From the NCBI GenBank assembly GCA_965242965.1, contig OZ251518.1, positions 3,296,001-3,360,000 of the forward strand: 64,000 nucleotides of DNA. The letters are read 5' to 3'. Under the pieces are notes generated by a model, which made no database searches, had not been told where the DNA came from, and was given only the letters and a program-made list of their open reading frames with translations. The translations under genes and the position numbers were made by a program. This DNA is from Candidatus Poribacteria bacterium (GTDB taxonomy: Bacteria > Poribacteria > WGA-4E > WGA-3G). Positions within the stretch are counted from its first letter, which is position 1; the number at the start of each line of letters is the position of its first letter. This document shows positions 21,157 to 55,474 of the stretch, piece by piece.

Positions 21157-21321
21157 GAATTACCTCCGTAAGGATACAAAAAGCCTTGCTTTCCGTGAGA
21201 AGACAGGGGACGTGGCGGCGTTCATGCGGCGGTAGGTTTCCAAAATCGTAAAAATCGGAGTGCCTCTCGTGCGCGCTGCGGTTCCACTGCTCTCCCGCGA
21301 AAGCAGATATGTGAAACACGG

Positions 21322-21518
21322 TGCAGGCAGGTCTCCTGACTTCCGACTTTTTCCATTTCACCTTCCCATCCGAATGACAGTGGTTTTTGAAGTGGAAACT
21401 CTCGATTGAGAGAGGTATCGTTCACAGTGGCGGGGCCGTGGCGGATTTTCACCGCGCTTCCCTATTCTCCGATTCGCAGAGTTTGCAAGTTTCACTCTAC
21501 ATCGGCACCTGAACCGTT
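21322..21518 (-). ncRNA. Cobalamin (B12) riboswitch
   Basis: Minus strand reads GGT..AATAGGGAA..GGTGAAAATCC..CGGCCCCGCCACTGT..CCACTG..GGGAAGG..AGTCAGGAGACCTGCC (B12 box). Confidence 0.95.
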
Positions 21519-21542
21519 TGCTTATTTAATTGTTATGGATAT

Positions 21543-29379: not shown

Positions 29380-29465
29380 TGTGAGTCTCCGTTGTCAATA
29401 TTGGGACCAGGACAGCATCGCGCCACCGTAGCGCGGGGGCCTGTCCCCCGCGATCACCGTCTCTC

Positions 29466-29804
29466 CTACGGTTCTTGCAATTTCACGTTAGTTCGATGGC
29501 GTTCGGTGTCACGCTGCGTCTTCTTCTCGATCGACTTCTTGAAAGCCGCCTCAAGATCTACGCCAGTTTGGTTGGCCAAGCAGATTAGCACGAAAAGGAT
29601 GTCCGCCATTTCTTCCCCGAGGTCTCGGTTGCGTTCGTTTTCTTTGAAGCTCTGATCACCGTAGTGGCGCGCCATGAGCCGTGCGAGTTCACCGACTTCC
29701 TCCATCAGAATCGCCGTGTTGGTTAATTCCGAGAAGTAGCGGATGCCGATGTCGTGAATCCAGTCGTCCACCAATTTTTGGCAGTTTTGGAGTGTGTAAT
29801 CCAT
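29466..29804 (-). CDS. MazG-like nucleotide pyrophosphohydrolase (YpjD type)
   Basis: LMEEVGELAR..YGDQSFK..EEMADILFVLICLAN. Confidence 0.92.
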   Translation of the reverse strand: MDYTLQNCQKLVDDWIHDIGIRYFSELTNTAILMEEVGELARLMARHYGDQSFKENERNRDLGEEMADILFVLICLANQTGVDLEAAFKKSIEKKTQRDTERHRTNVKLQEP

Positions 29805-30027
29805 GAGGTATGCTCCGATGTGTTGCGTTTTTTGTCATTATAGCAAATTTCGGGATGTAGGGCAACAATTTTTTTTATGGTGTTTCCGTTGCAATGGAAC
29901 GATCGCGGGGGACAGGCCCCCGCGCTACGGTAGGGTTGAAATCAACTCGCGGCTCCCGATCTCGGCAAAAACCAAAACGATACCGATGAAAAACCGAAAC
30001 GGCACTATTTTTTTTCTGACAAAAAAG

Positions 30028-30501
30028 TTGACAAAATTTGATAATGTGCGTATAATTAATAGCAGCATCGTCAATTTACTGCACGTTGTGTTAAAATTTC
30101 AAAAAATTTGGGGATTTTCTCATTTTTCTTTGATTTTAATTTGACAAATGTTGGAAAATCGTGTATAATTAACATATTGAGTGATGCCTATGCCATTTCC
30201 GGAGACGCGCCCGCTGCGCGAAATCTGGAAAATGGCTTGACAAAAATGTGAAAATTGGTTATCATTTAAGAAAACCACACATTTTTGCATTTTAATTTGA
30301 CATCGTTTGTCAATTGTGGTATAATTAACATATTGAATGATGCCTATGCCGTTTTTCTCAGCCTCGCCTACTTCGCGGGGTTTCAGAAAATAGCCTTGAC
30401 AACATTCTGCAAATCGGTTACCATCGTAGAAGTCATTTCACGGGACCATTTAGTTTTCGGTTCATAATAGACTTGACAAAAATGGTGAAATCGGTTATCA
30501 T
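30028..30501 (+). promoter_or_regulatory. Array of six tandem sigma70 consensus promoters
   Basis: TTGACA at 30028, 30141, 30237, 30297, 30396 and 30473, each followed after exactly 17 nt by TATAAT, TATAAT, TATCAT, TATAAT, TACCAT and TATCAT. Confidence 0.85.
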
Positions 30502-30509
30502 TTCGGAAA

Positions 30510-31410
30510 TCGCTAGACTCGGTGCCGGGAGTGTTCCTTTACCACCGGCCCCACTGAATCTATCTGGACGCTATTACAAAGCGCGAAACGCTGCAAACGG
30601 GCAACGACGATAATGATGAATCAAACGCACTACGTTGACACCTCATCTGAAAATACGCGAGGACGAAGCACTTGGCACCTCCACACCCGGTGGGGGACGG
30701 CCGGCTTGCGTCTTGACGTGCCTGCGGTTGCAATGTCCATAGATCCGGCGAAGACCCCCCCTTATCTCATGACCCGTTAAGGGATACTGACTCTCTCATC
30801 GCCGCGAGTTGCGCGGAGACCACTCTCTTCACGCAGCGCGCAGATGGCAACATGAGCACCTTGGATTCCCACGTTGGGAAACACCCCAAGGTGCTAGATC
30901 TGTTGCACGGTAGTCACTTCATTTCTTCCCTCAAAACGCGACACCCCAGTTGCGGTTTCCCTGCTTGTGCTTTGCTTCGTTCCATTAAGAAGCATCGGCA
31001 GGTATCTTCCGGTATCCTCACTCCCTCCAATAAACATAGGCATTCTTGCGCCGAATTTTTTGTCGGCAGTTGTCTCTCTGACGCTGCGCCGATGCGGCCC
31101 CTTCCTGCCTATTCGCTGATGTTGGAAGATTTTAATCGAACCGATGGCGGGCAATTCGCCTGCTTACGGAATGCGGGCATCGGCCCGCTGTTTGCCTCAC
31201 GACGAGGCACCGAAGACACGAAAACCCGCGTGGGTTCAGTCGTGTCTCGCGCCCGCTGCAACGGTAGCGGGGTTTGAAAAAGATTTCCGAACGGACTCCG
31301 GTCTGTTTGGAATTGGTGGTATCTCATCAAAAACCCTCGGGTCGCTGATGAGGTGCTCAAAACTATAAAAGTGAAAGGTTTTTCGGTTGAAGAACTTTTC
31401 GCTAAAATTT
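30510..31410 (+). ncRNA. Candidate large structured non-coding RNA or very long 5' leader (unclassified)
   Basis: Continuous nested helices with G-U pairs that work on the + strand; no convincing CDS; directly downstream of the promoter array. Confidence 0.55.
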
Positions 31411-31428
31411 AACAGATAGGAGGATAGA

Positions 31429-33093
31429 ATGAAAATGAAAGCATTTTCGATTCTATTGACGCTCGTGTGTATCGAGTTCGTCTTGATGCTTGCAGGGAAC
31501 ACCTCTGCGCAACAAGCGAAGATTGAGTTTACAGCGGAAACTGATGATGTCGTAGTGGAAGAAAGGCAGTATGAGATAGATGATAAGACAACGCTCACCA
31601 TTACCCTCAGACGCGGCGGTGCAGTGGTGCCGAACCAACCTGTCGAATTTCGGGTTCTTGGTTTTGTGGACCAGAACAATCGCTTCCTACCGCCGCCGGT
31701 TCCTGAGGCTGCTTCAGTCAGTCCAGAGAGGGGAGTCACCGACAATAACGGGCGGGTAACAACCACGGTGACTTTCCATAAGTCAGGACGCGTTGGAATC
31801 GAAGCAGAAGCACTTGATTCTCTCTACGTTCATGCTTTTCGGGTTAAGGCCGAACCGCCGCCACCGCCACCGCCTCCACCACCGCCACCGCCACCGCCGG
31901 AAATAACCCGCATTGTTGCGACTCCGAAGGTTGAGGGGGCCCTCGCTGTCGGCGATACCTTCACATACTCGATCGAGATTAAAAATGTGAAAGATTTAGC
32001 CGGCTGGCAGATGGACCTTGCCTACAATCCGGCGGTGCTTGAAGCCGTTGCTGTCAGAGAAGGTGATTTTCTGGCATCTGGTGGTGTAAATGCCGCGTTT
32101 CAGTCCGGGACTATGAGTGCAGGCAAAATCATGGGTATATGGCAAGCGCGCGTTGGAAGGACTGTGGATGCTACCGGAGAGAATGTCCTCACCGATCCCG
32201 TGGCGGGTGTTACCGGCTCTGGCGAATTGCTGTCAATCGAGTTTCAAGTCAAGCAATTTGCTGAGGACGCATTGGGACTGTCCAATGTGCAACTCAGTAA
32301 CACCGCGCATATAGGCGATGGCGGATCTGCTGGTATCCCAGCCCTGATCTTCAGTGAGGACTCACAGAAACCTCATAAGCGGATCTCTTACCATATCATC
32401 AGTAACCCCGTTGTGGTAACTCACCGGTATCCTCGGGAGGATGTCAATCGGGATGGAATGGTCGATGTTCTGGATCTGGTAACGGTGGCAGGGCAACTCG
32501 GTGAAGCCGCAACTAACCCACGCGCTGACGTAAACAACGATGGATTCGTCAATGTAATGGATGTTATCCTTGTTGCCCGGCACCCTAACTGGGGCAAAAG
32601 TGTGACCCCTATTAAGGTTAGGGACGCGAATGATCAGGTAGGAGGGGCTCCGCTGTCCGTAAGCGTTGGACAATCGGCAGACCTCGCACCTGCAACGATT
32701 CAGGCGTGGATCGACCTGGCACAGGTTGAGGACGATGGTTCCGCGATTTTCGACCTCGGCATCGCGAAACTGGAGCACCTGTTACAGGCAACGGTTCCGG
32801 AAGAGACGAAGCTGCTGCTGAACTACCCGAATCCGTTTAACCCGGAAACGTGGATACCGTATCAGTTGGCAAAAGCCACGGATGTCACGGTGTCCATCTA
32901 TTCGGTGAACGGCACCTTGGTTCGCACTTTGGCGTTAGGGCATCAGGCCGCTGGTGTCTACCAGACTAAGAGCCGCGCCGCGTACTGGGATGGCCGGAAC
33001 GAACTCGGCGAGCGCATCGCCAGCGGCGTGTATTTCTACACGCTCATAGCGGGCGATTTCTCGGCGACAGGCAAGATGCTTGTCAGGAAGTAA
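31429..33093 (+). CDS. Secreted modular protein: Ig-like, poly-Pro linker, cohesin, dockerin, C-terminal FlgD-Ig/T9SS-A-like domain
   Basis: AGGAGG RBS, signal peptide, long proline run, DLAGWQMDLAYNP (cohesin), DVNRDGMVDVLDL (dockerin), LLLNYPNPFNPETWIPYQL..WDGRN..ASGVYFY. Confidence 0.88.
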   Translation: MKMKAFSILLTLVCIEFVLMLAGNTSAQQAKIEFTAETDDVVVEERQYEIDDKTTLTITLRRGGAVVPNQPVEFRVLGFVDQNNRFLPPPVPEAASVSPERGVTDNNGRVTTTVTFHKSGRVGIEAEALDSLYVHAFRVKAEPPPPPPPPPPPPPPPEITRIVATPKVEGALAVGDTFTYSIEIKNVKDLAGWQMDLAYNPAVLEAVAVREGDFLASGGVNAAFQSGTMSAGKIMGIWQARVGRTVDATGENVLTDPVAGVTGSGELLSIEFQVKQFAEDALGLSNVQLSNTAHIGDGGSAGIPALIFSEDSQKPHKRISYHIISNPVVVTHRYPREDVNRDGMVDVLDLVTVAGQLGEAATNPRADVNNDGFVNVMDVILVARHPNWGKSVTPIKVRDANDQVGGAPLSVSVGQSADLAPATIQAWIDLAQVEDDGSAIFDLGIAKLEHLLQATVPEETKLLLNYPNPFNPETWIPYQLAKATDVTVSIYSVNGTLVRTLALGHQAAGVYQTKSRAAYWDGRNELGERIASGVYFYTLIAGDFSATGKMLVRK

Positions 33094-55107: not shown

Positions 55108-55270
55108 GAGAGACATCCTTGTCTCGACTCCCCCTGGTAGGAGAGACATCCTTGTCTCGACTTCCCCGGTAGGAGAGCCCTCCCGCGTCTCGATTTCTGC
55201 ACTCCCGGGCGCGATTACGGCGATTAACATCAAAAAAATGTGAAAAAATGAATTTTTTTTACATTTTAAT

Positions 55271-55299
55271 TTGACATCTGCCAAATTTTGTGGTATAAT
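55271..55299 (+). promoter_or_regulatory. Sigma70 promoter of the tRNA pair
   Basis: TTGACA-N17-TATAAT with an AT-rich upstream element. Confidence 0.8.
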
Positions 55300-55320
55300 T
55301 AAAACGTATTGTCAAAAGAT

Positions 55321-55396
55321 GAGCCGTTAGCTCAGCAGGTAGAGCATCTGACTTTTAATCAGGTGGTCACAGGTTCGATCCCTGTACGGCTCACCA
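55321..55396 (+). tRNA. tRNA-Lys (anticodon TTT)
   Basis: Cloverleaf: GAGCCGT/ACGGCTC acceptor, CTTTTAA loop, GGTTCGATCC, encoded CCA. Confidence 0.97.
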
Positions 55397-55399
55397 TTT

Positions 55400-55474
55400 G
55401 CCCCCGTCGTCTAGCCTGGCCAAGGACACCGCCCTTTCACGGCGGCGACACGAGTTCAAATCTCGTCGGGGGTA
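55400..55474 (+). tRNA. tRNA-Glu (anticodon TTC)
   Basis: GCCCCCG/CGGGGGT acceptor, CCGCC-CTTTCAC-GGCGG arm, GTTCAAAT; CCA not encoded. Confidence 0.95.

Follow-up and report, generated by a model that had tools for sequence, protein, structure and literature searches.

In the simple sequence repeat (SSR) contingency loci described from Neisseria, Haemophilus, Campylobacter and Helicobacter, homopolymer tracts lie at the 5′ end of genes for surface proteins (PMC5320596, PMC5084427, PMC6321876). In Haemophilus influenzae hmw1A, the repeat tract is transcribed as part of a structured 5′ untranslated region (UTR) that is processed by RNase III (PMC12721329), and a G-repeat in the leader of Helicobacter pylori tlpB is targeted by the small RNA RepG (PMC8295292). 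Rho attenuation that depends on an upstream open reading frame (uORF) or leader peptide has been described for mgtA, mgtCBR, corA and topAI-toiL in a review which, in the sections available to us, ties phase variation to Rho through invertible DNA only (PMC12360218). Here we analyse a 64,000-nt stretch of a Candidatus Poribacteria genome (the window), in which a presumed 5′ leader (30510..31428, + strand) runs from its putative start up to, but not including, the start codon of a gene for a secreted 554-aa cohesin/dockerin protein (31429..33093, +; the main gene). The leader carries a short reading frame that enters a poly-C tract, and its architecture points to a phase-variation (contingency) switch that would act through translation of this leader frame and would currently be OFF at seven C residues, a reading that we consider moderately probable. 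As an architecture the putative switch is well supported; as a function it is unproven.

Reading frames around a poly-C tract in the leader

The leader frame, a uORF of 55 codons (30613..30780, +), begins with an ATG, passes through a tract of seven C residues (C7; 30755..30761, +) and stops 19 nt after it. A second frame is free of stop codons for 561 nt, or 186 codons (30717..31277, +), and crosses a middle module and a folded RNA core that are described below; a tract of C8 or C5 would join the uORF to this long frame. An earlier, sequence-only reading of the window had listed an open reading frame (ORF) at 30852-31277, which is the ATG-delimited part of the long frame. In what follows, G000 is the genome that holds the window (5.7 Mb), C1 is a contig of that genome, and G001 and higher numbers are its relatives.

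The core is found in 16 species, and in 11 of these a tract of C7-C12 lies 210-380 nt before it; tract lengths in the relatives were C7, C8 (3 species), C9 (5) and C12 (2). The 11 tract-bearing species are non-independent but span five or more well-separated lineages. Each of them has an ATG frame of 48-61 codons that enters the tract, and in 10 of the 11 this frame stops 7-24 nt past it. In G123 the leader frame is in frame with the long frame, giving 231 continuous codons. The homologous leader frame was found in 13 of the 16 species, namely the tract-bearing ones together with G002 and G058. Past the tract the same design recurred without exception (11/11): stop codons close two of the frames 3-22 nt beyond it, while the third continues for 317-550 nt without one. 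We compared the openness of the long frame with 2000 dinucleotide shuffles of each species' region and obtained P values of 0 in G009 and G066, 0.0005 in G046, G098 and G123, 0.001 in G106, 0.0025-0.0035 in G069, G082 and G021, 0.011 in G000 and 0.0625 in G001. As a control, the core was inspected in tract-less species, where none of the three frames is open across it in G064 and G114 (0/3) and one of three is open in G068 (249 nt). The features that mark SSR contingency loci, a homopolymer of at least seven residues within a predicted frame and early stops in the wrong frames, were thus present in 11/11 tract-bearing species.

The distance from the far end of the long frame to the main gene differs between species. 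In G046, G123 and G058 this end falls between the Shine-Dalgarno (SD) sequence and the ATG of the main gene, with TAA as the stop in G046 and G123, and in the g2 genus (G069, G082 and G021) it falls 23 nt before the main ATG. G058 has no tract; here a continuous leader frame of 163 codons, with the same N-terminus, ends at the ribosome site of the main gene. Separately, the main-gene frame of G058 (locus L065) is open for only 102 codons, and the gene may therefore be broken there.

Natural variants and similar tracts elsewhere in the genome

Variation at the locus was followed in metagenomes and in protein databases. The leader is covered at ~95-99% identity by contigs from three sponge metagenomes, each of a different study. 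In one of these strains, 15 nt are deleted immediately ahead of the leader ATG (30597-30611). No RNA run was listed for this stretch, and a run presumed to be RNA (X20) covered only pieces of the promoters and that 3′ half of the main gene which paralogues share, a result without bearing on expression. A protein search with the long frame recovered nine database proteins, two of which are in-frame fusions of the leader frame and the long frame: P0003 matches 41/50 residues of the G000 leader frame and then 132/172 of the G000 long frame, and P0007 matches 40/44 residues of the G001 leader frame and then 112/139 of the G001 long frame. Five of the remaining proteins are called from internal starts, and two (P0008 and P0009) come from short-leader variants with almost nothing between the promoter region and the core.

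Within G000 we counted 224 C/G runs of at least seven residues (106, 78, 29, 7, 3 and 1 for lengths 7 to 12), a distribution that we judged by eye to be long-tailed (C8:C7 78:106). When the design was defined as two frames stopping within 30 nt after the run and the third open for at least 250 nt, 21 of the 224 runs showed it. Sixteen of these 21, this locus included, are switch-like cassettes, and the other five are ordinary genes or repeats. A promoter and an ATG frame precede large secreted genes in 13/16 cassettes; 3/16 are without a strict promoter match. Four cassettes are currently in frame. In some, the tract lies within the N-terminus of the giant secreted gene itself, and some of these are in frame and others out of frame. 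The cassette at C1:3948983 has a long frame that ends on the start codon of a 1368-codon gene, and that at C1:2222329 (C9) has a layout equal to the locus studied here; further examples lie at C1 positions 453532, 1165574, 2734619, 4262531 and 3795254. Most cassettes have a GTTAA motif 10-20 nt past the tract, from which one of the stops comes. Across 36 tblastn matches in the genome to the cohesin, dockerin or C-terminal module of the main protein, a poly-C tract was found upstream of this gene only.

Both tRNA-Pro and RNA polymerase are prone to slip on runs of C, and proline-rich leader peptides stall ribosomes, sensing EF-P or proline supply. A rival explanation is a non-heritable switch, in which RNA polymerase slippage or ribosomal frameshifting takes place on C CCC CCC or in which Pro-codon stalling serves as the sensor. 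That 10 of 11 genomes are out of frame is what would be expected if this state were the norm; the consensus sequences of all three metagenome strains are C7, every tract frame encodes 2-4 prolines with a stop close after, and structured RNA lies just downstream. However, joining the two frames would take +1 nt in seven species and -1 nt in three, whereas one needs no shift, so that the conserved shift direction of a programmed frameshift site is absent. Tract length is not conserved either, ranging over C7-C12 in genomes and about C5-C6 as inferred from proteins. Stalling alone leaves the 500-nt open third frame unexplained, and the same genome has the classical in-gene tracts at giant secreted-protein N-termini, both in and out of frame. 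Slippage or stalling is therefore an unlikely explanation, albeit one that keeps some weight.

A modular leader with a conserved RNA core

The main protein consists, in order, of a signal peptide, a Big_1-like domain, a Pro-rich linker, a cohesin, a dockerin and a FlgD_ig/Por_Secre_tail-like C-terminal domain. Its gene is preceded by the SD sequence AGGAGG (31418..31423, +). The start of the leader at 30510 is inferred from the last -10 box. Within the leader, the middle module (30737..31111, +; boundaries approximate, from alignment) is pyrimidine-rich with more C than G, and the core (31132..31282, +), composed of a closing helix and hairpins H1-H5, is the sole part common to all 16 species. 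Comparison between species showed that the leader is built of parts that can be lost. In G001, of the same genus, the entire region is present at 86% identity; in G002 the 5′ part (77%) adjoins the 3′ part (87%) and ~375 nt of the middle are missing; and the g5-genus species G068, G064 and G114, together with two database variants, have the core only, with neither middle module nor tract. Full-length orthologues in other genera have strong promoters ~350-1100 nt upstream. In 16/16 species the element lies 65-150 nt upstream of the orthologous start codon (SD and ATG). A signal-peptide-like start is shared by 14 of the 16 genes; G106 is divergent, and the start of G123 was misread by our script. 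When the genome contigs were scanned with a pattern from the main protein (its N-terminal 164 aa), 122 matches were obtained, none of them a relative.

We first saw the core as a shared block on aligning the regions upstream of eight orthologues, where its hairpins carried compensatory pairs. A covariance model (R1) built from this block was searched in 112 genomes of the family and in 121 genomes sampled across the order. R1 matched 17 of the 112, of which 16 were strong (E 1e-12 or better) and one was a weak and doubtful 78-nt partial match; it matched 11 of the 121, all 11 belonging to the same family, and 0/47 genomes of three sister families. Covariation was counted in a 19-row alignment with 24 pairs. 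Standard pairs are formed by 84.7% of cells, compared with 37-49% when the partners are slid by 1-3 columns, 13/24 pairs are changed on both sides, and the covariation score was reached by 0/500 shuffles; these figures lean towards structure because the alignment was fitted to R1, a point that tempers the case. H1 and the closing helix, both excluded from the covariation counts, were seen in most species from single-sequence folds and from reading of the alignment. Covariation, one of the checks proposed with the sequence-only reading, is thus shown by the core.

We read the core as a cis-acting element and a new 150-nt RNA motif. As it is present where the switch is absent, the core must have a role of its own; mRNA stabilisation and protein or ligand binding are candidates. 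It has a covarying junction such as a riboswitch would show, and no expression platform (a terminator or an SD-sequestering fold) was recognised. In the metagenome contigs a genus-specific core pattern found 0 stretches and a wider pattern found eight, of which 0/8 pass R1. A weak second copy of the core (35.5 bits) was observed in G000 at C1:4243171-4243337 (locus L069, - strand), in an intergenic position, with the C-terminal module of a cohesin/dockerin paralogue following ~1.6 kb downstream, and G009 also has a second, partial core copy.

Folding of the leader

The sequence-only reading had described 30510-31410 as a highly structured RNA. We found that the + strand of this region has a minimum free energy (MFE) of -348.2 kcal/mol, compared with -292.1 +/- 4.9 for dinucleotide shuffles (z -11.4; 0/20 as good), and that the - strand has a z of -2.2. 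The number of shuffles was 20 for the whole region, 100 for each segment and 15 for other species. The excess of G-U wobbles claimed for the + strand fits this strand bias. The 5′ part (30510-30740) folds with z -2.2 on the + strand and -0.3 on the - strand, the middle (30741-31118) with -4.0 and -1.7, the core (31119-31282) with -4.8 and -3.6, and the 3′ hairpins (31283-31428) with -6.5 and -2.6. The small frame at 30613-30780 is unstructured (z -0.2 on the + strand, +1.4 on the - strand). Among the other species the strand bias of folding is mixed.

All six helices listed in the sequence-only reading are at their given positions on the + strand and also appear in the MFE fold: 30847-30906, the helix of 31004-31130 that encloses ATAGGCA/TGCCTAT, GACACGA/TCGTGTC, 31284-31313, 31319-31357 and 31373-31400. 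The first of these is a conserved two-tier hairpin, kept in G001, G106, G098 and G066; in its inner stem a C-G pair is exchanged for U-A. The last three are genus-specific hairpins between the core and the ribosome-binding site. The main start codon lies within a local hairpin formed with its own first codons (31418-31470), with a predicted pairing of 0.99 in G000.

A scan with Rfam 15 at gathering thresholds gave three matches in the window and none in 29400-31600; when the scan was extended to E up to 10, six weak matches appeared, the best with 22.5 bits against the 60 required, and the best E in the region (0.057) belonged to the AT-rich promoter zone. No family reaches its threshold in the region, in agreement with the earlier statement that no signature of tmRNA, RNase P, 6S, SRP or a known riboswitch is seen there. 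The three matches elsewhere in the window are a cobalamin riboswitch (21309-21527, - strand; 100.1 bits) and two tRNAs.

Promoter array and linkage to the main gene

Upstream of the leader we found six sigma-70 consensus promoters (30028..30501, +), each with 10-12 of 12 consensus letters. The promoter array that had been claimed here is real: there are 13 promoter-like sites where 2.7 +/- 1.9 are expected, and six of the 13 lie on the + strand at 30028-30501. A strict promoter pattern has 385 matches in the 5.7-Mb genome, and only two clusters of three or more, one being this array of six and the other lying at C1:3550490-3550738, before a tRNA and 23S rRNA. By the same pattern G001 has six promoters and G002 has four. 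The array is made of internal tandem repeats (30100-30430) that are kept across three species; each repeat unit combines two promoters with a GC-rich hairpin. Some stretches of the array are similar to single promoters elsewhere, including one at 55256-55302 that directly precedes two tRNA genes at 55321-55474. Judged by the quality of these promoters alone, the transcript is probably made at a very high rate.

An rRNA-type promoter stack, an extreme fold z-score with strand bias and a conserved, covarying core are together what a free-standing, abundant, large structured non-coding RNA (ncRNA) would show, whether it acted in trans or as a scaffold, and if the proposed switch were OFF and transcription stopped early, a leader-only RNA could accumulate. 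Such an RNA gene would be expected to have its own 3′ end and to be independent of its neighbour, and neither was found. Terminator-like sites are no more numerous than chance predicts (3 compared with 2.6 expected), with none between the core and the main gene; the element is fused to the same downstream gene in 16/16 species; leader length varies from roughly 350 to 1100 nt between species, with whole modules lost; and a reading frame is held open across the element. We therefore regard a stand-alone ncRNA as improbable. The fixed position before the gene, the lack of a convincing terminator and the modularity of the region support its reading as the modular 5′ leader of the cohesin/dockerin gene mRNA rather than a stand-alone RNA gene. 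Of the two readings first offered for the region, the long regulatory leader thus holds, but was incomplete, and the undescribed large ncRNA is unlikely, given the 16/16 linkage and the lack of a convincing terminator of its own.

Coding potential of the long frame

The long frame might instead encode a protein. In six species pairs, pN/pS by the Nei-Gojobori count is 0.66-0.93 in the open frame, compared with 0.45-0.89 in the other two frames; being no lower in the open frame, it gives no sign of amino-acid constraint. Codon-type conservation of 30852-31277, which the sequence-only reading held would tell against an RNA, is absent by the same comparison. The part before the tract has a pN/pS of 0.37-0.71, which is below that of one alternative frame and not the other. 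Differences between strains in the metagenome contigs number 3, 4 and 5 on codon positions 1, 2 and 3 (hand count). The gaps between species mostly respect the frame: they measure 12, 15, 9 and 15 nt between G046 and G123 (4/4 multiples of three), 6, 15, 3, 9, 3, 9, 3, 1 and 38 nt between G046 and G106 (7/9), and 6, 4, 96, 6, 21, 6, 45 and 1 nt between G066 and G106 (6/8).

These gaps, the open frame kept in 11/11 species, the in-frame forms (G123, G058, P0003 and P0007) and an N-terminus of the leader frame that is similar in two genera, with its first dozen codons alike and synonymous-looking changes, would all suit a fast-evolving, phase-variable protein gene of ~190-235 aa that comprises the leader frame and the long frame and whose folding is incidental. 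The pN/pS values speak against it, as do the shift of the frame relative to the nucleotide alignment in the core (G000 and G046 at H5, by eye), the absence of any Pfam family, at E up to 1, from the four leader-frame products tested, the change of helices by compensatory pairs and the closing of the frame in tract-less species. A protein gene of this kind is quite improbable. As openness is kept without amino-acid constraint, the conserved property would be the passage of ribosomes and not the product, and the region is apparently both a folded RNA and a stretch that ribosomes are meant to cross.

Part of the two-tier hairpin (30857-30904) has a 48-nt twin, 83% identical, at C1:2065373-2065420 in G000 (locus L002). 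The twin sits within an 889-codon methylase-like gene, where it encodes the stretch just before the SAM-binding motif, and this gene carries a C11 tract of its own, in frame and 139 nt upstream. The leader module may have descended from the 5′ end of an L002-like methylase gene; the likeness is limited to the hairpin region, and we record an origin from a methylase gene fragment as an observation rather than a finding. A functionless mosaic of decaying gene fragments and repeat hairpins, such as the leftover of a methylase 5′ end, would accommodate the twin and its C11 tract, the weak similarity of the long frame to the methylase-like gene (E about 4e-4 over 38-68 aa, one-sequence database) and the gain and loss of modules between species, but is very improbable in view of the maintenance, in no fewer than five well-separated lineages, of one open frame beside two that close at once, the covariation in the core, the synteny in 16 species and the confinement of the methylase similarity to the hairpin region.

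A model for translation-gated switching

In the contingency switch that we propose, six rRNA-type promoters would transcribe the long modular leader together with the main gene, and the leader would hold two separable devices, the core upstream of the ribosome-binding site and the switch upstream of the core. Ribosomes would start at the ATG at 30613 and enter the hypermutable poly-C tract. In two of the tract frames they would stop within ~20 nt; in the third they would read on for ~500 nt, through the C-rich middle and then the folded core, in the direction of the main start. In the ON state (C8 or C5 here), ribosomes would shield a C-rich, Rho-loading-like stretch and unfold the leader, and transcription and translation would then reach the main gene. 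In the OFF state (C7, as in G000), ribosomes would leave early and the naked, folded leader, either exposed to Rho or remaining folded, would damp expression. The composition of the middle module is consistent with such a stretch: its C/G ratio is 1.10-1.80 in 10/10 species, with best 78-nt windows of 2.1-3.7 (1.35 and 2.1, respectively, in G000), while the core is balanced. A rho gene is present in the genome, and Rho may act at the leader. The predicted pairing of the main SD (0.34-0.96) shows no clear separation of tract-bearing from tract-less species and does not settle between Rho exposure and folding in the OFF state.

Several observations weigh against this proposal. Between the end of the long frame and the main ATG lie 152 nt in G000 (352 nt in G001 and 91 nt in G009), and coupling would therefore be indirect here. 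The module is dispensable, with no tract in G002, G068, G064 and G114. The leader frame of G000 is without a clear SD sequence, whereas other genera have GAGG 12-13 nt upstream. All three metagenome contig sets carry C7 with no indel in the tract, although contigs drop rare variants. The tract lengths of P0003 and P0007 (about C6 and C5) are inferred from residues and not from DNA, and it is indels outside the tract that bring G123 and P0003 into frame. Neither of the two gaps between G106 and G098 (2 and 29 nt; net 27) is a multiple of three. Finally, the + strand bias in folding is not universal, as G009 and G069 fold better on the - strand (15 shuffles).

A wider proposal, which we put forward as plausible but tentative, is that Poribacteria use a reusable translation-gated leader cassette. 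In it, a mutable poly-C tract in a leader frame with an irrelevant peptide would gate the passage of ribosomes through folded, Rho-accessible RNA and thereby switch a surface or defence gene. The locus described here, where an rRNA-strength promoter stack and a separate RNA core are added to the cassette, would then be its most elaborate version. To our knowledge, phase variation is known almost exclusively from pathogens, and its repeats lie almost always in the promoter or in the regulated gene itself. If the proposal is right, leader-frame contingency switching would be a phylum-wide regulatory principle in a non-pathogenic symbiont, in which the act of translation, and not the peptide, is the signal. 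A heritable switch could then be wired to translation-dependent readthrough of a leader, and the surface of uncultured sponge symbionts would change stochastically, a matter of relevance to host recognition and phage pressure. The 150-nt core would stand as a new RNA motif to which a partner could be assigned. For annotation, the locus is a caution that, in these genomes, a long leader taken as 'non-coding' can be at once a folded RNA and an open reading frame.

Comparison with known systems

The large structured bacterial RNAs in Rfam 15 include OLE, GOLLD, ROOL, HEARO and raiA. The leader resembles these RNAs and riboswitches in size, in strong folding and in its covarying multi-helix junction. 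It differs from them in that no model matches at threshold (only weakly at E up to 10), in that it is not autonomous and in that no expression platform was recognised.

Closer parallels are found among the systems with which we began. With SSR contingency loci the poribacterial locus shares a G/C homopolymer of at least seven residues in a predicted frame, premature stops in the wrong frames and a surface-protein target, as well as the occurrence of many loci per genome in mixed in-frame and out-of-frame states. Unlike in those loci, the tract here lies outside the regulated gene, in a separate, unconstrained leader frame over a conserved folded RNA; it belongs to an uncultured sponge symbiont rather than to a pathogen, and switching is predicted from sequence. 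The hmw1A adhesin gene likewise has a hypermutable repeat inside the long folded leader of a surface gene, with leader structure as part of the mechanism. The hmw1A repeats are heptamers, however, with no leader frame described, and their number grades the output by way of a hairpin and RNase III, whereas the homopolymer here sets the reading frame. 

The tlpB/RepG pair offers a variable homopolymer in an mRNA leader that tunes the downstream gene post-transcriptionally, as is proposed here. It does so by base-pairing with a small RNA in trans; the tract here lies in an ATG frame with designed stops, and no such partner is known. In uORF-dependent Rho attenuation, as in our model, a small leader frame decides between ribosome cover and Rho exposure, and a C-rich, G-poor stretch follows the stop. 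There, a metabolite or ion sets the progress of the ribosome; here the mutable tract would do so, and the action of Rho is putative. Among the papers listed for Poribacteria with phase variation, homopolymer or dockerin/cohesin, and for phase variation with leader peptide or uORF, not one gives an account of the device. The locus thus appears to stand apart in its combination of a mutable tract in an unconstrained leader frame with a conserved folded RNA, which none of the nearest known kinds seems to share.

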